Source: an uncultured candidate division WWE3 bacterium
GTDB lineage: Bacteria > Patescibacteriota > WWE3 > UBA101185 > UBA10185
NCBI GenBank assembly: GCA_903879985.1
Contig: CAIRNR010000007.1
Span: 412,880-463,518 of the forward strand
Direction: 5' to 3'
Length of the DNA: 50,639 nucleotides
In this document: positions 1-50,006 of the stretch, piece by piece
Position numbering within the stretch: position 1 is the stretch's first letter
Layout of the letters: each line of letters begins with the position of its first letter
Notes under the pieces: model-generated
What the model was told of the DNA's origin: nothing
Databases searched by the model: none
The model's input: only the letters and a program-made list of their open reading frames with translations
Position numbers and translations under genes: made by a program

Positions 1-47
1 TTTATGCCGTCACTACTTCTTAATGTATAATTGATTTCAGAAAACTA

Positions 48-164
48 AATCCGCCGACTAAACAAAAATCCACGCCATATTGGTGTGGTGCGTAAAACTC
101 ATAAAGGGGCTACTCTTTCGGGTTTTACGCTTAGTCGGCGGATTACTACAAGAGTAGTCCCTTT
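48..164 (+). ncRNA. Structured RNA candidate with C4/CI-antisense-like architecture
   Basis: 14-bp perfect stem 48-61/131-144 encloses hairpins 70-88 and 90-130. Loop 103-117 is complementary to 150-164. All mismatches are G-U on the + strand. TATAAT at 26-31. Confidence 0.6.
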
Positions 165-231
165 GTTTTCGTTAACGATGCTTTTGGACTTTCTTAAAAA
201 GTTTTCAAGTAATTATTTTAAGGAGTTCAAA

Positions 232-489
232 ATGGCTGATTTTGCAAATGAAGTGAGCGCGGTAAAAAAGGTTGGTAAAGTTCAAAGGCAATGCCCTCAT
301 TGTGGTAAATTCAAAATAATTAGCAAAAAGGAGACCGCAGGATTTATATTCCTTGGTGGTTTATTCACAATACTCTTATTTGGCATTGGGCTTATTGTTA
401 TGGTTGTTGCAGTAGTGTATTTAATAGTTATTAGGTTTGACTACAAGTGCGTATCATGTGGTTACGAGTGGAAAAACGAAAAGAAGTAA
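232..489 (+). CDS. Small membrane protein, CxxC-hydrophobic hairpin-CxxC (LITAF-like zinc ribbon)
   Basis: AAGGAG SD before ATG 232; CPHC...hydrophobic stretch...CVSC. The track start at 85 lies inside the structured RNA. Confidence 0.7.
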   Translation: MADFANEVSAVKKVGKVQRQCPHCGKFKIISKKETAGFIFLGGLFTILLFGIGLIVMVVAVVYLIVIRFDYKCVSCGYEWKNEKK

Positions 490-497
490 ATAGTTTT

Positions 498-594
498 TTG
501 ACAATAGTGGGTTGGTTTGTTAGCATAGTGCCAACAACAAGCCTAAAAGAGGCACTGAAACGAGTTTGACCAATGTCCTATAGTATTGTATAAT
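498..594 (+). promoter_or_regulatory. Two tandem sigma70-type promoters
   Basis: TTGACA(498)-17 nt-TAGCAT(521) with TGn extension; TTGACC(566)-17 nt-TATAAT(589). Confidence 0.7.
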
Positions 595-642
595 TAGACT
601 AGTTTACAACAAGCACTAATAATCCAAATAAGGAGAAAAATC

Positions 643-1023
643 ATGTGCAAGTCTTTCAATAAAGGCGTCCTGTATGTGCGTATTCACGATGGCGAGGTTG
701 CTGACTTTTTCTACCCTGATGAGGAAGTTCCTGCGGGATACTCCAACTTCCACTGCCAACACATCGCCCGTATCCATTGGGAAGCAGGCGAGCCGAGTTT
801 TGGCGGTTGGGTTGATACCTCACAGAACGGCGACCGTTCAGGTTCGGGCATGCTGATTGAATTTCGCAAGGCTACCGACGCTGACATCAAGAAACTGCTG
901 GATGCATGGAAAAGTCGCGTCTCTATCGCTGAATGGGTCGAGAATGTTCAAGAATACAATCCCGACCTGTCCAAAGCAGAAAAAGACCGCATCGCCCGCA
1001 TCACCAAACCCTACATCAAGTAA
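643..1023 (+). CDS. Hypothetical protein (accessory cargo)
   Basis: AAGGAG SD, 126-aa ORF, visibly more C-ending codons than neighbours. Confidence 0.75.
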   Translation: MCKSFNKGVLYVRIHDGEVADFFYPDEEVPAGYSNFHCQHIARIHWEAGEPSFGGWVDTSQNGDRSGSGMLIEFRKATDADIKKLLDAWKSRVSIAEWVENVQEYNPDLSKAEKDRIARITKPYIK

Positions 1024-1043
1024 AAAACGTAGGGACATTTTGA

Positions 1044-1106
1044 GAAGCTCTCTCGTCTACTTTTGGTTACCAAACCAACTGCGGATTAGAGGGCTTCACT
1101 TTTTTT
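1044..1106 (+). terminator. Terminator-like stem with U tract
   Basis: GAAGCTCTCT(1044-1053)/AGAGGGCTTC(1088-1097) followed by a T run; loop is unusually long. Confidence 0.4.
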
Positions 1107-1152
1107 CTTATCCTTACACTAATTTGTTACCCTTTTTAGATATAATTAAATA

Positions 1153-1650
1153 GTGAGTGCTATCAACGAAAATCAACTATCGTCAACAATAAGTGACATT
1201 GTTTTAGTAAATGACGTGCATTTTAGAGCCGTTAACTTAAAGCTTTGGGGGTTAAGTTATAAAGAAATTGCTGACGAATTGCACCGCAAAGAACAAACGG
1301 TTAGGAGTTGGTTTTCACAGGGTGGCGAGTGCCACGATTATTACGAAGAACTTAGAAAACAACGTTGCGAAGAAATTAAACAGCACCTTGATAACTTAAA
1401 AGACAGCTTGGACGAAACGGTTATAGCTTCTATGGCTTTAATCCGCAAGGCAGTTGTTGAAAAGAAAAACGAAAATGTCGCTCTAAAAGTTCTATTGGCA
1501 ACAGGGATTATTCAAGGATTTGAATTGCCAAACATGCCCCATCAAAACGGCAATGAGCTAATTTCATATCTCAAAGCTTCAATAACTGCCTACGAAAAAG
1601 TGAATAAAATACCCGTGTCCAATACTTTGGACGCCGATAATACAGCCTAA
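1153..1650 (+). CDS. Helix-turn-helix protein
   Basis: GLSYKEIADELHRKEQTVRSW HTH pattern; TATAAT 6 nt before GTG. Confidence 0.7.
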   Translation: MSAINENQLSSTISDIVLVNDVHFRAVNLKLWGLSYKEIADELHRKEQTVRSWFSQGGECHDYYEELRKQRCEEIKQHLDNLKDSLDETVIASMALIRKAVVEKKNENVALKVLLATGIIQGFELPNMPHQNGNELISYLKASITAYEKVNKIPVSNTLDADNTA

Positions 1651-1694
1651 ACCTTTACCAACTTTGCTGTTAAAATAGCGTTGAGGAAAATGTA

Positions 1695-2348
1695 ATGACC
1701 TACGATGAAAAATACAGCTTAATAGTGAAAGCGGTAAACGACGCTAAAAAGTTTTCAACTGATGTTAATAACGTTGATGTGCCTGTAAATGGCAACGTTG
1801 GTTTGTGGAATGTTTCAGTGGACGATATTACTAAAATTCTTCAACAAATTGAAAGAGAGGGCGTTTTACGCATTAAGAAGCTACCCAAACCACCGCTTAC
1901 AACTGACGTGCACTTTATCGTTAGTGTGAACGAAACCTTTGACGGTTGGGTTAAGAAATACTTAACAATAGAAGGAATACAGAAACTGAAACAAGAACAA
2001 AGAACCGATGCGATTGCACAGGCGGAACTACAAATTTACTACACACCTGCACGTGAAATTTTGATAAATCAGTTGTTCCTGCTTCATAAGACCTCTTTTG
2101 CTACTGAAAACGATATGGTTTTTGATTACCTTTTTCACCACCCAAACGAAAACTTCACGAAACGAGATTTGGAAACAAGAATATCAACGAAAATAAATAA
2201 GTCATTTCACAAAATAGTGGAAAACCTTGGATTTAGCGGTGATATTAAAAAGTTATTTTTTGTAGTATCCAAAGATGCAATTCTGTTTAGAAACCCTGTA
2301 ACCAAAAGCGATATGGAACAATTAGGTATATTAAGAATAACATTTTAA
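1695..2348 (+). CDS. Hypothetical protein, possible C-terminal winged helix
   Basis: 217-aa ORF with GAGG SD; fold guess is weak. Confidence 0.65.
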   Translation: MTYDEKYSLIVKAVNDAKKFSTDVNNVDVPVNGNVGLWNVSVDDITKILQQIEREGVLRIKKLPKPPLTTDVHFIVSVNETFDGWVKKYLTIEGIQKLKQEQRTDAIAQAELQIYYTPAREILINQLFLLHKTSFATENDMVFDYLFHHPNENFTKRDLETRISTKINKSFHKIVENLGFSGDIKKLFFVVSKDAILFRNPVTKSDMEQLGILRITF

Positions 2349-2427
2349 TCATTCCTATCCATTCCCATTTGTTCTGTTCTATGCCTACCGAAACGACAGA
2401 AAAATTAAGTCGTTTTAAAGTGTTTCC

Positions 2428-2700: not shown

Positions 2701-2837
2701 ACGCTATGACCTTAGAAGAAGCCAAAACGATATTGGGCGAAGTGGCTACAAGTATGAGCGACCAAGAAATTGAAAAGCTTATAATGTTTATTGAGAAACT
2801 TTGTAATAAATTTATTGAAGAAGCAACAAAACAGTAA
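2697..2837 (+). CDS. 46-aa protein missed by the ORF track (MNAMTLEEAKTILGEVATSMSDQEIEKLIMFIEKLCNKFIEEATKQ)
   Basis: ATGA overlap with the SpoVG stop; TAA 2835-2837 is 1 nt before recombinase ATG 2839. Confidence 0.65.
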   Translation: MNAMTLEEAKTILGEVATSMSDQEIEKLIMFIEKLCNKFIEEATKQ

Positions 2838-2838
2838 A

Positions 2839-4407
2839 ATGCAAAACATAATTAACACCGTTAAAAAGAAAATCGCCTTAATTTATTGCCGAGTTTCTTC
2901 GGAAAGACAAGTCAAAGACGGTAACGGTTTGGACAGCCAAGAGAAGCGTTGCCGAGATTATGCCACGCAAAAAGGCTACGTAATTAGTGAAGTTTTTAGA
3001 GACGAGGGCATATCGGGCGGGAAAGCAGACCGTCCTGCAATAGCAGAGCTTATAGATTACATAGATGACCACCCATTAGAGGATATTGTTGTTATATTTG
3101 ATGATTTAAGCAGGTTAGCAAGAGACGTTGCTGTTTATATTCAACTGACAAAAGCCCTTAAATCAAGGGGTGTGACCATTGAGTGCCTAAATTTTAACTT
3201 TGACGATAGCCCCGAGGGGGAATATGCAGAACTTATTATGGCAAGTTCTAATCAACTGTTTAGAAAGCAAAACAAACGCCAAGTAATACAGAAACAAAAA
3301 TCAAGGTTAGAAGACGGGTATTGGCCTTTTTGCAACCCACCCGCTTTTAAATTCGTGAAAGACCGTGAAAAAGGGCGTGGAAAAATTCTTGTCTACAATG
3401 AACCCATTACAAAAATCCATAAATCTGCCTTTGAGCAATACGATGCCGATATACTTAATACCTATGACGAAGTAAGAGATTATGTTAGGAGTGAGTATAA
3501 AAAGCAAGGTGTGAATAAACTGTTTGGGCGCAACGGCGCAATTTATATGCTATCTAATGTGCTTTACTGCGGGGATATTGCGTATAAACCTTGGGGAGTA
3601 GAACGACGGAAGGGCAAACATAAAGGCTTTATATCCGTAGAGATGTTTGAGCGTGTCCAATTGAAAATGAAAGGTAGGGCTAAAGCAAAAGCTCGCAAGG
3701 ATTATAGCTTGGATTTTGCATTAAGACGCTTCGCAACCTGCTCACAATGTGGTGAGTTCCTTACAGGGAGTTTTAGCAAAGGCGAGCATGGAAAACTATA
3801 TCCACACTATTGGTGCAAAACCGAGGGTTGTCCACTAAGATATACGACCATCAGAAATGGCGATATTGACACCTCGTTTGAAAACATTTTGACAAAAGCA
3901 AAGCCTAAAAAAACAGTATTGGAATTAACACACGAGGTATTACAGCGCTGTTGGAATAATAAAATTAAGGCTCACGAACTCACACATGCCTCAACGATAA
4001 AAGAATTGGCACAAGTTAGCAAACAAATTGATGGATACATGGCGAGACTTGGAAACACTCAAAATGAAGACTTAGTAACAATGTATGAGGAGACACTTAC
4101 CAATTTGGTTAAAGCGAAAAAAGACCTATCGGGAAAAATTGGCGTTAATCCGTATACCGAAAAAAGTCTTGGAACTGCTACTAACAAAGTTTTTAAAGCG
4201 ATAGAAAACCCCTTAGGTATGTGGAAAACCGACAGCATAGAAGACAAAAGAACCGTTCTTGGTATGTTCTTTGAGGGCAAACTTCCATACGACATGAAAA
4301 ATGGGTTTGGAACTCCCAAATTTTCAGATGGTTACAATGTAATCAAGTCTCTTGAAAGCTCAAAAGGCTCTTTGGTGGAGATGGCGGGAATCGAACCCAC
4401 GTCTTAA
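2839..4407 (+). CDS. Large serine recombinase (integrase)
   Basis: IYCRVSS catalytic motif, DEGISG, DDLSRLAR, recombinase domain, CSQC...C..C zinc ribbon, coiled coil. Confidence 0.95.
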   Translation: MQNIINTVKKKIALIYCRVSSERQVKDGNGLDSQEKRCRDYATQKGYVISEVFRDEGISGGKADRPAIAELIDYIDDHPLEDIVVIFDDLSRLARDVAVYIQLTKALKSRGVTIECLNFNFDDSPEGEYAELIMASSNQLFRKQNKRQVIQKQKSRLEDGYWPFCNPPAFKFVKDREKGRGKILVYNEPITKIHKSAFEQYDADILNTYDEVRDYVRSEYKKQGVNKLFGRNGAIYMLSNVLYCGDIAYKPWGVERRKGKHKGFISVEMFERVQLKMKGRAKAKARKDYSLDFALRRFATCSQCGEFLTGSFSKGEHGKLYPHYWCKTEGCPLRYTTIRNGDIDTSFENILTKAKPKKTVLELTHEVLQRCWNNKIKAHELTHASTIKELAQVSKQIDGYMARLGNTQNEDLVTMYEETLTNLVKAKKDLSGKIGVNPYTEKSLGTATNKVFKAIENPLGMWKTDSIEDKRTVLGMFFEGKLPYDMKNGFGTPKFSDGYNVIKSLESSKGSLVEMAGIEPTS

Positions 4408-4760
4408 ACCTAATTCACACAGCGTCTACAAGCTTATTCAAACTTAACTTAAGTATAATAAGGCGCTTGAAAAACCTAAGTTATACCGCAAGCCAATAGC
4501 TTTGAGCTCTAAGCCCTAGGCGGACAAAGTTGGCTATAAATAGTCAGGCCTCATTCCGGTTTTATATGACCCAAAGAGTCTCATCCGGACACAAAACTTT
4601 GGATCTGCAAGCTAGTTTTTAATTAGGCTGCAACGAAGGCCATTGCTGGCACATCGACTAAAGATGATTCTTCAGCATTTATTGTTTTGCTGGTTTAAGG
4701 AACCCGCGGTCCTGCATGCAACCGTGCAAATATAAGCTCAATCAAATCCTGAGCATCCCC
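4373..4760 (-). ncRNA. ssrA: tmRNA, tag (A)AEESSLVDVPAMAFVAA
   Basis: 5' GGGGATG / 3' CATCTCC-ACCA acceptor with G3-U pair; T-arm GTGGG-TTCGATT-CCCGC; tag frame 4676-4623; adjacent to smpB. Confidence 0.95.
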
Positions 4761-8300: not shown

Positions 8301-9568
8301 GTAAAATAAGAGCACCAGCGCCACATAGAACACCCGCATGCACTGACGGCATAGCAGGGCCATTTACATGCCCGGGCATGGTCCTAAAATCAACGGACTT
8401 CAAAGTACAAAACCAGAACATAAATGAAGATAATAAACTATATCTAGACCCTATGAAAACTGTGGACAACATGTACCAACAGTTAATTCCACCATTTATG
8501 ACATCCAAATTCTACATTCCCGGAGCTAATGTAAGTGCTAAAACTTCCATAGTACCAAAAGAACAAGAACCTCAAGTCAATATGAATGAGGCATTACATA
8601 AAGACATAACGGGGTTCGGATCCGGCGCGGCGGCTGAATACAAACAAATAGCGGCACATCCAATAGATTTTGCACCATCAATGCCGATAAGTAACTCTGT
8701 ACAGTTTTGGTGCACTAGCGAGTTAGGCGCAGGAGCTTGGAGCTGCCCAATATTACCAGTACCAAACCCAGAGTTCATCGATATTAATGCCTTATTAACC
8801 GATGGTAGAAACGGATATTCTTCTGCGGAAAACGTGCTTGGCGCAGACCAAACAGCATATACCCCAAGCCATACTTCGTATTTAACCTTTTGGTTAAATG
8901 CCGCCGCATCATTCCCATTTATTAAAAGCAATGCACAAATACCTGCACTTGCTGCTGGGGGTTATTGTTCACTTAACCCAAGTGACGATTGTAAACGCGC
9001 ATTAGGTATACCTGAAGCAGATTTAAAAGCAGAGTTATCAAGTCCTATGTTACATATAATGGATGCAGCAGCGCAGAAATTTAGCATACCCGCCGTAGTA
9101 CTTGCAGAATACTTAGGAAGAATAGGAAAAATAGGATCTTACAGATATTTTTGGAGCCAAGGCGGAGCAAAGAGCTTAATTGATGCCAGTTCTCCTTGGT
9201 ATGGCACTATTGCCGAATGCGATGACGTTAATGCTGCCGAACAAGGCGCATACGACTTATTCCAAACCGGATTTAATGGCGGATTAAAAGGACCAGGCGA
9301 TGCCACAGGTGCCTGCGCCGCGCTTGAGGAATTAAGTCAAGGTAGATGCAAAACAGCAAGTAGGTGTAATTTCTTAGACTCGACGTATGTTGTAGCAGCG
9401 ATATTAAAAACAATGGGACCACAAAGTGGCGGTTGCGGGTGGACATATGCTCAAGCAAAGGCAGCTTTATACACGTTAACATGGGGATCAGATAGAAAAG
9501 TTGGGTTTGCAAACGATCCTTGGTACGAGAATGCTCCAGGTCCAAAAATCTGGGACGCATGCAAATAA
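5381..9568 (+). CDS. Giant secreted Cys-rich protein with degenerate lysozyme-like C-terminus
   Basis: N-terminal signal peptide, many Cys clusters; AAAQKFSIPAVVLA...RCNFLDSTYVVAAILK resembles an SLT fold. Confidence 0.75.
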   Translation: MLRKFSAVFSIIFFLLLLSQTASIQHAFAARLLAPGTRCDLSSDNRISNVCGNARSALSEDYALSDGQTATGPGRGLGGVSVYLYECDPTSPTCKVEGNLTLLNNAFSSTYTTDETGWYEIPMRKVGAYQLRYIVFACNGTVAGIQKIRSYQSLELNPILNCPPYNSYIPPPKKLNYIDKSPLSCDMQPAFSGGPVAMEVSYGETKPSTLLNLDITVKDGDPRFATLATDPQAPILAVAGNDGNVDGAWWHLDCMKKYSGVSRQLCMGGQPDVNGTRQKYEDALYANPAYLVQNKLPNIPPSNSILFYKELTPRQDITEYSQSPTKPAQFLQTQFGNCVGQVYLRKFGEKTQENIVDCSAFKSCNAAIGDGDRNRQYSSGPMKGLANPSIFQTKFEADADLNAVVCKVDGGTCTLKCDSPTNPTKCWYEGDCIKLGQIQPSWSLCHLGEGGCNYKYDKTYFNPEIMYFHGLAGTPSKYPLGFETTNDSYGSSQGAGLGNTFTNEVPWQPTKEAQGVPAQGGTFITGTNPLGNSNNSLFAPMGGLVSNSLGGGKIALSYVLDRPFESPDDKMRYTSGEMLMDLDPGVAHCIKSNVNKDLITGAKDLITNVLTETRNGNIYRNSMFQGVLDHWFKDLSLSGAELVDISGTAQSKKTATSGRYFTTPAKNRAIELNRWAPNLFTLGVTQKFGFIDYSSWAIMNRDFVDSVLTTTYGPGKITVTSDSILAAILSVVQKFLDKTENKTFIDRKSTAPEQLMDDIKADFTLSEENFMSLFPLPTRFDSNWLETDDWGKDNQCYPWKTVLPTKASCGTAKEDPSNPGVETQDPQAISRTCRVEACNKKQTIVRCDCEKHSDGSVSGPDNCDDKDVVDVDGGGACAHAWLDPYNDRLRCAQTQTTCMDDKGKVDEDCLKLTFGIESPLGNIVDSAKPKCEDQTYPSCCTNPPGGWNKTEDVEVTNPATGEVTIETKYSCEGCKIRAPAPHRTPACTDGIAGPFTCPGMVLKSTDFKVQNQNINEDNKLYLDPMKTVDNMYQQLIPPFMTSKFYIPGANVSAKTSIVPKEQEPQVNMNEALHKDITGFGSGAAAEYKQIAAHPIDFAPSMPISNSVQFWCTSELGAGAWSCPILPVPNPEFIDINALLTDGRNGYSSAENVLGADQTAYTPSHTSYLTFWLNAAASFPFIKSNAQIPALAAGGYCSLNPSDDCKRALGIPEADLKAELSSPMLHIMDAAAQKFSIPAVVLAEYLGRIGKIGSYRYFWSQGGAKSLIDASSPWYGTIAECDDVNAAEQGAYDLFQTGFNGGLKGPGDATGACAALEELSQGRCKTASRCNFLDSTYVVAAILKTMGPQSGGCGWTYAQAKAALYTLTWGSDRKVGFANDPWYENAPGPKIWDACK

Positions 9569-47585: not shown

Positions 47586-50006
47586 TTAGAAAGGTAACTT
47601 AGCTTTAGAAAACTCAGGAAGCGGGGGTAATTGTGGTTCGTTCATTCCTGCTCTAAGTTCTACGTATTTTTCTACTTCTTCTGCTGGCACGCCATATTTC
47701 ATGCGAGACATTTCTTTAAGTTCCAGTGCGAACTGTGGGTTTTTGGTAACAGCTGAAAGTTCTTTCCAGTCAACGTGCATAGAAAATGGTGCTGTTGGTT
47801 GTCCTTTAACTAATAAACGTACATAACAATTACCTACTGGCAAATTAATTAAGTCTGTTTTTGTAAATCTTGGGGTGAATTGATTTTCTAAAAATTCTGC
47901 ATCTTCTACGCCGATTCTGAATACGCACATAGTTCCAACGTTTCCAAAGATAGCGTCTTTAATCTGTTCATCGAGTTGTGAAATAAATTGGTGGGCAACT
48001 GTAAGGTTTAGTTTATATTTACGAGCCTCAGATAATATTGTGGCAAAATCTGGAGTAGCAAAGTTTTGGAACTCATCAACGTATAGGTAAAAGTGAGGGA
48101 AGTCTTGTCCGGCAACAACCATTTTATGTCTTCCTAATGCTGCCGACAAAATTCTTGGGACTAAAAGTAAGCCAATGAAGTTAGAGTTTTCCTCACCAAT
48201 CTTTCCTTTTGCTAAATCTACCAACAAAATTTTCTTTTGTGCCATTATTTCTGCCAAGTTAAATGACGATTTATGTTGTCCTAAAATGTTACGCATGGTT
48301 TTATCTGTAATGAATCGGTCAAACTTGGAAACGATATATCCCATGGTTTCACCTTTTCGATTTTGAGAAGTGTTGGCCACTTCGTCTGTCCAATAACGTT
48401 TAACCAAAGGATCGGTTAATTTATCCATAAACTTCTTGTGATATTTATCGTCGATTAGTAAACGCATAACATCTACAAATGTTGCATCTGGGTCAGACAT
48501 TGCTGTTAACATAACGTTTCTAATTGCACGCTCAAGTACCGGTCCCATAATTCCCTGGTGATTTGGATCGTAAAGTTTGTAGAGAAGCGCAATAAAGGAA
48601 TTAATTAACATGTGCTTTTCTTCTTCACTGTGAGCTTCAAGCATGTTAATACCCATTGGGCGTTCAGTATCGGCTGCGTCAAATAAAATAATATCGTCAC
48701 GTCTTTCAGGTGGGATCTTTTGTAGTAGTTCTTCAACGTCAGTTCCGTGTGGATCGATAATTGCTAATCCTCGACCTGCTTTTATATCCTGCATGGCCAA
48801 CCACATCATTAGTTGAGATTTACCTGTACCAGTTTGTCCAATAATGTAAAAGTGACGTGCGCGATCTTCTTCTTTCATAAAGATTTGCTTGGATACACCA
48901 CGGAATTCACTTTTACCTAAATAAAGGCCTTCATCGGGTATATTGGTTGGTGCTGCGGAACGTCGTGCGCCTAACCACATGATATTTGGTGTTTCTATAT
49001 TTTTATTTGGAAAATGAAAGACTGTAGCCATTTCAATAATATTTAATACGGCGCAGTTTGAAAAAACTTGAATTCCCATTACTGGAATATAAATTTCAGT
49101 AACCGAAAGTCTGCGAAATATAAAATCATCAATAAGTTTTTTGGGTGAAACAAACGTACGTTTAACTAGGCGGTTGTAATTCATATCTGTGAACTGCTCA
49201 AAAGCGGCAAGCATACTTTGAATATGTGTTTGCGTGCTTATTTTATCTTTGGAAATTGCGATAACTCTAATTTTTGTATTGAAACCTGCTTGGGCAATTT
49301 TCTTTTCTACTGCTTCCAAAAATGCGGTATCAATATTCACTTTTTTTTCAGGATTAGCACTTTTATCTTTTATTGAAGAAATAAAACGTCTTCCGGCCAA
49401 TCTCCAGTTATCGCTGGCTGGTTGCATAACATATTGCACGGCAATAACTTCGTCATCTTCAAGTTTACTCATGGAGTTTGTAATAGAACTCAATGAATCG
49501 TTTTTTAAATCCTCATAACCTTTGATTGGATAATAAGTTGGTCCTTTTAATTTTAATTCGGCAACTTGCGTAAAGGCGCCGCGATCCCAAATCTCTTGTG
49601 GATCTACAATATCTATTTCGGCCGAAGGATACGCAGCGTTTATTTGTTTTTCTACAAGTTGTGCTATTTCATCTGGGACTACTACATAAAAACCAATGCC
49701 GTTACTTTTGGAAACTATTTCAAAGGAAATTCTATATTGTCCTGTAAACAACGCCTTCCAAAATCCTTTTTTAAAACTGGAAATATTTGAAAACATATGT
49801 TCCGCTGCTTTTATTTCGATTTCGTTGTCAGGAGGAAGTTTAATTTGCAAAAATGTAAGTTTGTATTCGTTTAGTTTTTCGAATTTCGAACGCTTAATGT
49901 TAGCAATTACAATAACCGTACCGAAAATAAGGGATATCAAAATTATTGCGTACGCCATTATCCAAAATGTATTAAATATGACCGAAGATATATCAAGCGT
50001 GTTCAT
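47586..50006 (-). CDS. VirD4/TrwB-like coupling ATPase
   Basis: N-terminal TM; HFYIIGQTGTGKS, IDPHG, LYVDEFQNF, EARKY..AHQ. Confidence 0.88.
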   Translation of the reverse strand: MNTLDISSVIFNTFWIMAYAIILISLIFGTVIVIANIKRSKFEKLNEYKLTFLQIKLPPDNEIEIKAAEHMFSNISSFKKGFWKALFTGQYRISFEIVSKSNGIGFYVVVPDEIAQLVEKQINAAYPSAEIDIVDPQEIWDRGAFTQVAELKLKGPTYYPIKGYEDLKNDSLSSITNSMSKLEDDEVIAVQYVMQPASDNWRLAGRRFISSIKDKSANPEKKVNIDTAFLEAVEKKIAQAGFNTKIRVIAISKDKISTQTHIQSMLAAFEQFTDMNYNRLVKRTFVSPKKLIDDFIFRRLSVTEIYIPVMGIQVFSNCAVLNIIEMATVFHFPNKNIETPNIMWLGARRSAAPTNIPDEGLYLGKSEFRGVSKQIFMKEEDRARHFYIIGQTGTGKSQLMMWLAMQDIKAGRGLAIIDPHGTDVEELLQKIPPERRDDIILFDAADTERPMGINMLEAHSEEEKHMLINSFIALLYKLYDPNHQGIMGPVLERAIRNVMLTAMSDPDATFVDVMRLLIDDKYHKKFMDKLTDPLVKRYWTDEVANTSQNRKGETMGYIVSKFDRFITDKTMRNILGQHKSSFNLAEIMAQKKILLVDLAKGKIGEENSNFIGLLLVPRILSAALGRHKMVVAGQDFPHFYLYVDEFQNFATPDFATILSEARKYKLNLTVAHQFISQLDEQIKDAIFGNVGTMCVFRIGVEDAEFLENQFTPRFTKTDLINLPVGNCYVRLLVKGQPTAPFSMHVDWKELSAVTKNPQFALELKEMSRMKYGVPAEEVEKYVELRAGMNEPQLPPLPEFSKAKLPF

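Follow-up and report, generated by a model that had tools for sequence, protein, structure and literature searches.

The 50,639-nt stretch analyzed here (the window; positions 412,880–463,518 of contig CAIRNR010000007.1, assembly GCA_903879985.1, from an uncultured candidate division WWE3 bacterium) encodes near its left end a small structured RNA, which lies on the + strand within a recombinase island of 5,982 bp at the 3′ end of the transfer-messenger RNA (tmRNA) gene. Comparison with homologues revealed a well-supported new family of structured RNAs in integrative elements of bacteria of the candidate phyla radiation (CPR), absent from Rfam 15; the family is real and acts at the RNA level. 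A purine-rich hairpin loop of this RNA pairs with a 3′ tail of the same RNA, and the resulting loop-tail helix, which stops right at a U run, is unusual and probably attenuating. The reading we favor, with a probability of roughly 0.45, is a leader/attenuator in which a terminator helix is built from the distant loop and the 3′ tail.

Knowledge of gene regulation and mobile elements in CPR bacteria (Patescibacteria) is scarce. The RNA is a marker of small integrative islands located at tRNA and tmRNA genes and equipped with a large serine recombinase (LSR), and in some lineages it forms the 5′ untranslated region (UTR) of the recombinase mRNA. If the loop-tail helix is a terminator made of non-adjacent parts, it would represent an unusual attenuator design; if the RNA acts in trans, it would provide a compact copy-sensing control of a serine integrase, and serine integrases are in use as genome-engineering tools. 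With its small size and simplicity, the family lends itself to direct testing in vitro.

RNA architecture in the window

The RNA gene comprises the following features.

26–31, + strand: −10 promoter box TATAAT of the RNA gene, read from the sequence
37–177, + strand: RNA gene as matched by the covariance model R1 (132.9 bits, E = 9.9e-27)
48–61, + strand: 5′ strand of the closing stem P1, in 14 perfect pairs with 131–144
70–88, + strand: P2, a variable small hairpin (70–76/82–88) with one G-U, from the sequence and the predicted fold
90–130, + strand: P3 hairpin (90–100/120–130) with a 19-nt loop and 11 pairs, one of them U-G, from the sequence and the predicted fold
103–117, + strand: loop arm AAAGGGGCTACTCTT, purine-rich and Shine-Dalgarno (SD)-like, complement of 150–164
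131–144, + strand: 3′ strand of P1, pairing with 48–61
140–160, + strand: alternative local hairpin (140–147/153–160) of P1 end, linker and tail, terminator-like in prediction, −9.3 kcal/mol
150–164, + strand: tail AAGAGTAGTCCCTTT, complement of the loop arm, read from the sequence
162–172, + strand: U-rich run TTTGTTTTCGT, after and partly overlapping the tail, from the sequence and T counts in homologues

The transcript would extend from about 39 to about 172, its ends being placed from the −10 box and the U run. P3 reaches 11 pairs when the loop-adjacent U-G and C-G are included. Pairing of the loop (103–117) with the tail (150–164) gives 15 pairs, one of which is G-U (G109-U158); the tail begins 5 nt past P1, and the arms of the helix are 32 nt apart, with the spacer taken up by P3 and P1. 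A sequence-only reading of this DNA had described the TATAAT box, the stems, the hairpins and a loop antisense to its own downstream flank, with all imperfect pairs being G-U on the + strand, and each of these is indeed present in the sequence. That reading had also ascribed to the RNA control of the downstream gene. Here only part of the claim held: the nearest downstream open reading frame (ORF) lies on the same strand in all 23 copies compared below, but the tail lies 56 nt 5′ of the SD at 220–225 and leaves this SD uncovered. Because the target ends at the U run, the helix resembles a terminator more than a mask of translation. In the window RNA, the loop arm is not followed by a start codon.

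Fold stability, covariation and transcription signals

Folding of the + strand gave a minimum free energy (MFE) of −61.9 kcal/mol (z = −9.45), which was equalled by none of 200 shuffles, and the − strand gave −52.2 kcal/mol (z = −7.05). Conservation was analyzed in a structural alignment of 23 sequences, consisting of 22 copies from the taxonomic family of the window's genome and one from a sister family. Standard pairs occupied 98.3% of the cells compared with 81.6% in shuffles, a level reached by none of 500 shuffles, and when the 3′ partners were slid by 1–3 columns, only 36–60% of cells remained paired. Because relatedness alone can lift sequences above shuffles even where no structure exists, the slid controls and the two-sided changes carry more weight. 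Both sides had changed at 25 of 38 pairs across all three helices: at 10 of the 11 modelled pairs in P1, 8 of 11 in P3, and 7 of 16 in the loop-tail helix, where six further pairs were invariant. In the last of these helices, for example, CUAC/GUAG alternates with CAAC/GUUG, and CCCU/AGGG with CCUU/AAGG. The model, which guided the alignment through P1 and P3, has no loop-tail pairs in its structure, so the loop-tail helix was not favored by the alignment. The pairing between loop and target is thus conserved and covarying, in support of the sequence-only reading.

The variation in the loop-tail helix is unevenly distributed. The loop core AAGGGG is identical in 23/23 copies, and AAGGGG/UCCCUU forms the invariant part of the helix adjoining the U run, whereas the distal part covaries. 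The fourth G of the loop is in a G-U pair in 21 of the 23 copies, on the + strand only. The predicted duplex is stable throughout, with −25.3 kcal/mol in the window and −21.6 to −33.1 kcal/mol across all copies. P2 is less regular; a hairpin was predicted in the aligned stretch in about 13/23 copies and displaced in the rest. The local hairpin between linker and tail ranges from −3.6 to −11.2 kcal/mol across the 23 copies. It is present in most Saccharibacteria-type copies, in which the linker tracks the tail type (CTAC or CAAC). These predictions give the tail two alternative partners, loop arm and linker, which hints at a possible switch.

Most of the unpaired cells in the alignment originate from a single row (L032, genome G005, contig C15, 1501–1646, − strand) that lacks the 5′ half. 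The loop arm, both 3′ strands (of P3 and of P1) and the tail are retained in this copy, and the retained part is near-identical to a copy in genome G032; its 5′ half is swapped for unrelated AT-rich DNA, in which a TATAAT is still present. Either recombination, leaving a scar, or decay of the copy may account for this.

Signals of transcription flank the conserved fold. An exact TATAAT was found 3–12 nt 5′ of the model start in 21/23 copies, and the other two carry TATAAC and GATAAT, each one base off. The 9 nt past the CCC of the tail contain 5–8 T in the 20 copies scored by script and 7 T in the other three, counted by eye. These data, together with the z score above, bear out the earlier description of a + strand structured RNA with its own promoter box. 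They also bear on a DNA-level element, such as an accessory site of the recombinase, a replication origin or a cruciform, for which the long inverted repeats within a recombinase island might be cited. Such an element is scarcely credible: the wobbles are all G-U on the + strand and thus C-A on the other, the + strand folds better, the −10 box and U run are conserved, and the island ends, where the recombinase must act, are 1.65 kb and 4.2 kb away from the RNA.

Family and distribution

BLAST comparison with 60 relatives yielded six clear homologues (all E <= 1.1e-7), and the covariance model R1 was built from six sequences. Within the same taxonomic family (86 genomes), R1 detected 22 copies on the forward strand in 19 genomes, with up to three copies per genome. 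For wider collections, the exact motif AAGGGGCWAC-N35-60-GTWGTCCCTT was scanned. It occurred in two IMG/VR contigs, both of which match R1 (118.5 and 92.3 bits), and in 60 stretches of a species-representative genome collection, where about 100 chance matches are expected by our own arithmetic; hence this list was filtered. R1 matched 24 of the 60 stretches at E <= 0.01, including 11 already known, with identical scores, and 13 new ones. Among the remaining 36, we judged 24 to be relatives of different architecture (by eye, with folding of 15), and 12 were set aside as chance matches or simple hairpins.

The 24 variant relatives come from Peregrinibacteria/Peribacteria, Nealsonbacteria and other Parcubacteria. 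They have a TATAAT-like box about 75 nt upstream, a long interrupted stem, and a U-rich run past the tail; AAGGGGCWAC and its continuation lie in the apical loop or a junction strand, and the tail ending in GTWGTCCCTT starts 1–9 nt past the stem base. Loop-tail duplexes of the 15 folded variants range from −19.3 to −25.5 kcal/mol. Among the Peregrinibacteria, 11 copies share identical loop and tail sequences, and their stems covary. The variants also contain a hinge with extra bases on the 5′ strand only, in the form of a 6–14 nt bulge or a P2 hairpin.

An even sample of the phylum (401 genomes) contained the exact motif in 7 genomes, all of the window's family or the sister family. The RNA is therefore widespread yet sparse, as expected of a feature of mobile elements. 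Four R1-matching contigs (L042, L052, L078 and L093) come from metagenome-assembled genomes (MAGs) labelled Gammaproteobacteria or Pseudomonadales, and two motif-only matches (L074 and L077) from MAGs labelled Cellvibrio and Alteromonadaceae. The four contigs have 37–42% G+C, and genes related to the same recombinase or terminase-like genes are present on three; these labels may or may not be right. In five RNA-bearing genomes, all seven tail-motif sites fall within RNA copies. The window's genome contains no extra copies or orphan targets, except for a plain terminator on contig C6.

A proposed leader/attenuator with a terminator helix from a distant loop

In the favored reading, a leader RNA of about 130 nt (about 39–172, + strand) would be transcribed from the conserved −10 box and fold into P1, P2 and P3, and the purine-rich loop of P3 would pair with the tail. 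The loop-tail helix of 15–17 bp and the U run would then act as a terminator, the 5′ arm of which is supplied by a distant, pre-folded loop. Most transcripts would stop at the U run, leaving a stable small RNA of about 130 nt, and a minority would read through into the downstream genes, namely the 85-aa membrane protein in the window and cargo or recombinase elsewhere; the rightward genes of the element would thereby be throttled. The data show the fold, the covariation of the three helices, the promoter box, the U run, the gene order and the element context with its ends, whereas termination, throttling and whatever relieves it are inferred.

Several observations argue for this reading. The order of an A run, GGGG pairing with (U/C)CCC, and a U run is the anatomy of an intrinsic terminator, and the G+C-rich loop-tail helix is directly followed by the U-rich run, although its arms do not form one continuous short-loop hairpin. 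Constraint on a terminator stem should be greatest next to the U run, and the position of the invariant half of the helix, which adjoins the U run while the distal half covaries, fits this expectation. On contig C6 of the window's genome (G000; about 48534–48580, − strand), a plain hairpin terminator that closes a gene has the arms AAAGGGACTACTTCT / AGAAGTAGTCCCTTT, the same as loop and tail of the RNA, followed by GTTTG; the same arms thus form a plain terminator, which supports the terminator reading.

The position of recombinase genes behind variant RNAs is also informative. The LSR gene directly follows the RNA in six variants (L040, L048, L057, L066, L073 and L087) and is the second gene in L094. 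Its start codon in these six lies 14–38 nt past the tail with no SD in between, a distance that leaves no room for another promoter, so that the RNA must be the 5′ UTR of the recombinase mRNA there. In L040, L048 and L057 the tail ends 13–14 nt before the recombinase ATG and leaves the ATG uncovered; with the start codon only 14–15 nt past the tail, expression needs read-through. The recombinase match in L092 starts 16 nt past the model match.

Other points weigh against the favored reading. A look-up with window positions 1–2400 listed no RNA-sequencing run that contains this DNA. On the 5′ side of the loop only 2 nt would have to span a 15-bp helix, and in L094, L057 and others the loop appears to be 23–45 stacked pairs away from the tail at the stem base; pairing in cis would therefore need a sharp hinge or partial melting. 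The hinge bases on the 5′ strand of the variants could permit the stem to fold back, with arm lengths that do not obviously match. The predicted local hairpin of linker and tail could terminate alone, and the long-range pairing would then have no explanation. The AAGGGG/UCCCUU core is more strictly conserved than a terminator needs, which hints at a further partner. Finally, a promoter-like site at 566–594 suggests that the recombinase in the window may not depend on the leader.

Binding of a ribosome by the SD-like loop arm is one possible additional contact, as judged from predicted pairing: the loop arm pairs with the 3′ end of the genome's own 16S rRNA at −7.4 kcal/mol, compared with −7.7 kcal/mol for the true SD of the next gene. 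The loop segment AAAGGGG (103–109) is SD-like, and the tail UCCCUUU resembles the 16S 3′ end (16S at G000 C7:525411). This affinity, and a very stable fold near the presumed 5′ end, would suit a 5′ stabilizer or ribosome-sensing leader, in which the loop binds the 30S subunit in a STAB-SD-like manner or the fold blocks 5′ exonucleases, so that the downstream mRNA is protected or read-through is coupled to free ribosomes. We consider it highly improbable that this is the function of the RNA, because there is no start codon behind the loop, the conserved structure has the loop engaged with the tail, and the U run would be left unexplained.

Relation to known systems and pairing in trans

The sequence-only reading had likened the RNA to the C4 and CI RNAs of phages. 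A cmscan search of the whole window against all 4,227 Rfam families (Rfam 15) detected only the tmRNA at gathering score, and a search of bases 1–700 at E <= 10 returned four weak unrelated matches and no C4; membership in C4 or any other Rfam family is thus not borne out. The same search in 18 variant loci gave only tRNAs at gathering score, and nothing meaningful was found in two variant loci at E <= 10. Comparison by blastn with 50,697 phage records and 72,556 plasmid records yielded no match, and full-text literature searches turned up no account of an RNA like this.

In the C4 antisense RNA of phages P1/P7 (Rfam RF01695), which RNase P cuts out of a precursor as the mature RNA, two loops pair with two targets covering the ribosome-binding site of icd. 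Like the RNA described here, C4 is a small structured RNA of a mobile element in which a loop pairs further down its own transcript. The present RNA has one loop and one target, located in the window 56 nt 5′ of the SD, where C4 has two of each. The P4 CI immunity leader is functionally the closest known system, followed by C4 of P1/P7; the RNA is a member of neither family. P4 CI, with the related IsrK/STnc1160 region of Gifsy-1, is likewise a promoter-proximal untranslated leader of an integrative element and carries an effector and its complementary target(s) on one transcript; here, the pairing covaries and the element ends are fixed. By analogy, the likeness may extend to premature termination before the element genes. 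In contrast, P4 CI has two targets (seqA and seqC) and the present RNA only one, directly followed by the U run; the RNA further differs in its CPR host, the LSR and a core that is invariant across lineages, and it has no sequence or model similarity to the P4, IsrK or SeqA RNAs in the Rfam, phage and plasmid searches. Of the two functions that had been proposed, immunity or attenuation, the first fits poorly with the invariant core, since specificity would be expected to vary, and the terminator-like helix speaks for the second.

Attenuation induced by antisense RNA is known in plasmids pT181 and pIP501. Intrinsic terminators and these attenuation systems share with the loop-tail helix an A run, a G+C-rich helix and a U run, and a helix made with a non-adjacent RNA arm can still serve as a terminator stem. 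The difference is that the 5′ arm here lies in the apical loop of a folded domain of about 100 nt, 32 nt or more upstream; no terminator built from such a distant loop is known to us, and the literature searches found none.

A precedent for pairing between molecules exists in passages of PMC4825925, which describe P4 CI as a processed leader that causes premature termination by pairing with complements upstream and downstream of itself. We regard it as doubtful that the present RNA is a trans-acting, dosage-sensing self-antisense RNA of this kind. The stiff hairpin would part the loop from its own tail, and accumulated loops would pair with nascent tails of the same or a sibling element, resulting in an intermolecular terminator or, where the start codon lies 14–15 nt past the tail, in a block of the start site; the genes would be expressed in a burst when the element enters a naive cell, and would be silenced thereafter. 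Intermolecular pairing needs no fold-back, whereas the cis geometry is strained, and the tail always starts 1–9 nt past the stem base, whatever the stem length or architecture. The leader tails are moreover the only perfect targets in the five RNA-bearing genomes mentioned above, and the presence of up to three copies per genome would suit a dosage sensor. However, the core of loop and tail is invariant across distant lineages, unlike diversifying specificity determinants, copies within one genome are largely cross-compatible (G032), pairing in cis would out-compete if it is sterically possible, and nothing indicates processing.

Broader still, and unlikely, is an entry switch of this self-antisense type, with intermolecular pairing, common to the whole class of CPR integrative elements. 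If it existed, resident leader RNAs would stop new transcripts, in the extreme form as head-to-tail RNA dimers, recombinase and cargo would be active only during the first minutes in a newly entered naive cell, and the invariant core would let any resident element silence any incoming relative.

Other identities were tried and rejected. The bridge RNA of IS110 is a structured RNA directly upstream of a recombinase gene, with loops that vary with target and donor DNA. It resembles the present RNA as a non-coding structured RNA upstream of the recombinase gene of a mobile element, but here the loops are invariant, variation is confined to the stems, and the recombinase is of the serine family; a bridge-RNA-like guide was rejected, as the loop core is invariant in 23/23 copies and loop and tail are unlike the attachment-site core TTGGTGGA. 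LOOT (RF03000; gathering score 46.4 bits) is similar in being structured, of unknown function and of comparable size (121 model positions), but a genome-wide search at E <= 10 gave 0 matches, and the cmscan runs gave none either; in the main text of PMC5737381, LOOT is not described and the word occurs only as an author name. For motif matches of 74–80 nt a tRNA was considered; ARAGORN found none at the motif in 36 loci, and in the window only the tmRNA. A riboswitch is unlikely, because almost no unpaired positions are conserved outside the loop arm. Hammerhead, pistol and twister ribozymes gave no Rfam match and have no counterpart of a conserved junction core here, and for a type III toxin-antitoxin system the downstream genes are too diverse.

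Neighboring genes of other copies

Comparison of the genes around other copies revealed that those behind the RNA are diverse, including DUF4352, SHOCT and zinc-ribbon membrane proteins, a GDSL lipase, DUF6804 and many unknowns. No protein is common to all copies; clusters c1–c3, SpoVG-like and DUF5659 proteins each occur in subsets. In 12 of 15 larger loci, an LSR gene is located no more than about 9.5 kb from the RNA, and in 7 of these 15 the RNA, cargo and LSR are followed 2.8–5.7 kb downstream by an opposite-strand tRNA (Gln, Pro or Glu) or tmRNA gene. Of the 86 genomes in the taxonomic family, 40 have LSR homologues and 19 have the RNA; an LSR match was present in 17/19 RNA-bearing genomes versus 23/67 RNA-less ones, a comparison among related genomes given without a formal test. 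Most recombinases are without such an RNA.

This setting bears on a stand-alone small RNA with another job, for instance a protein-binding scaffold or head-to-tail dimers or multimers, in which the loop-tail helix and U run would serve merely as terminator or assembly contact and the downstream genes would have their own promoters. The RNA is constant while the downstream genes differ widely, the core is invariant while P1 and P3 vary freely, suggesting a conserved partner, and loop-tail complementarity would permit reciprocal antiparallel dimers at any stem length. Nevertheless, this reading is distinctly improbable, as the RNA is part of the mRNA in the six variants and L092, with the recombinase start 14–38 nt past the tail, and no protein co-occurs with all copies.

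A frequent type of island has genes for a ParB-methylase, a helix-turn-helix (HTH) protein and a terminase-large-like protein directly before the RNA, and includes both IMG/VR contigs. In six islands from Saccharibacteria-like genomes (L099, L100, L105, L112, L036 and L037), the order is ParB-N6 methylase, HTH, Terminase_6C, RNA, cargo, LSR and tRNA gene, and no capsid or tail genes were seen in the stretches examined. The ParB/terminase type of island may be a satellite-like element. Cargo of other islands includes an Eco47II restriction-modification pair, SocA/Panacea, arsenic genes and glycosyltransferases. Two Peribacteria loci have a tyrosine integrase directly upstream of the RNA.

The island at the tmRNA gene

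Beyond the RNA, the following features of the window belong to the island and its target.

232–489, + strand: gene of the 85-aa zinc-ribbon membrane protein, the first after the RNA, with SD AAGGAG at 220–225
566–594, + strand: promoter-like TTGACC-17-TATAAT ahead of ORF 643–1023, with 11/12 consensus matches (consensus match only)
2791–4407, + strand: LSR of the island (Pfam Resolvase 2.7e-26, Recombinase 2.7e-05)
4364–4379, no strand: right island end, with 4371 as its final base and the shared core of 8 nt, TTGGTGGA, in 4372–4379, from the empty-site contig
4373–4760, − strand: tmRNA gene, the integration target (ARAGORN; Rfam RF00023, 121.1 bits)

The proposal of a mobile element at the tmRNA gene was supported by an empty site. 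A contig from metagenome run X1 joins positions 8389 and 14372 of locus L113, skipping 5,982 nt, with 8 letters that fit either side; the ends were fixed from one contig only, by an overhang of 30 nt, and the assembly may itself have been made from this run, so that the evidence is specific but thin. The left end of the island lies 1,611 nt before the window start, and the right side of the junction is the exact 3′ end of the tmRNA gene. In the restored empty site, the tmRNA lies directly before a clean hairpin terminator.

The RNA heads the rightward genes from a divergent promoter region 1.65 kb from the left end of the island. The leftward genes, before the RNA, encode a 181-aa protein and a SEC-C/DUF5677 protein. 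Rightward, the RNA is followed by genes for the 85-aa zinc-ribbon membrane protein, a 126-aa protein, a 165-aa HTH protein, a 217-aa protein, a SpoVG-like protein, a 46-aa protein and the 538-aa LSR. The 85-aa protein has no Pfam match, and a homologue of it (cluster c11) lies behind another copy of the RNA. The promoter-like site at 566–594 overlaps a weak match to the freshwater-2 motif at 571–645 (19.6 bits; gathering score 49.9).

The LSR ORF has no stop before the island end, and its last 12 codons are antisense to the tmRNA 3′ end. In the excised circle the ORF would run into the left end of the island and give 566 aa instead of 538 aa; since the ORF crosses the island junction, integration changes the C-terminus of the enzyme. 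The island also parts the tmRNA gene from its own hairpin terminator by 6 kb (empty-site junction at L113 8350–8389, 1.6 kb before the window), so that transcription of the integrated tmRNA gene must either enter the recombinase gene in antisense or end by processing.

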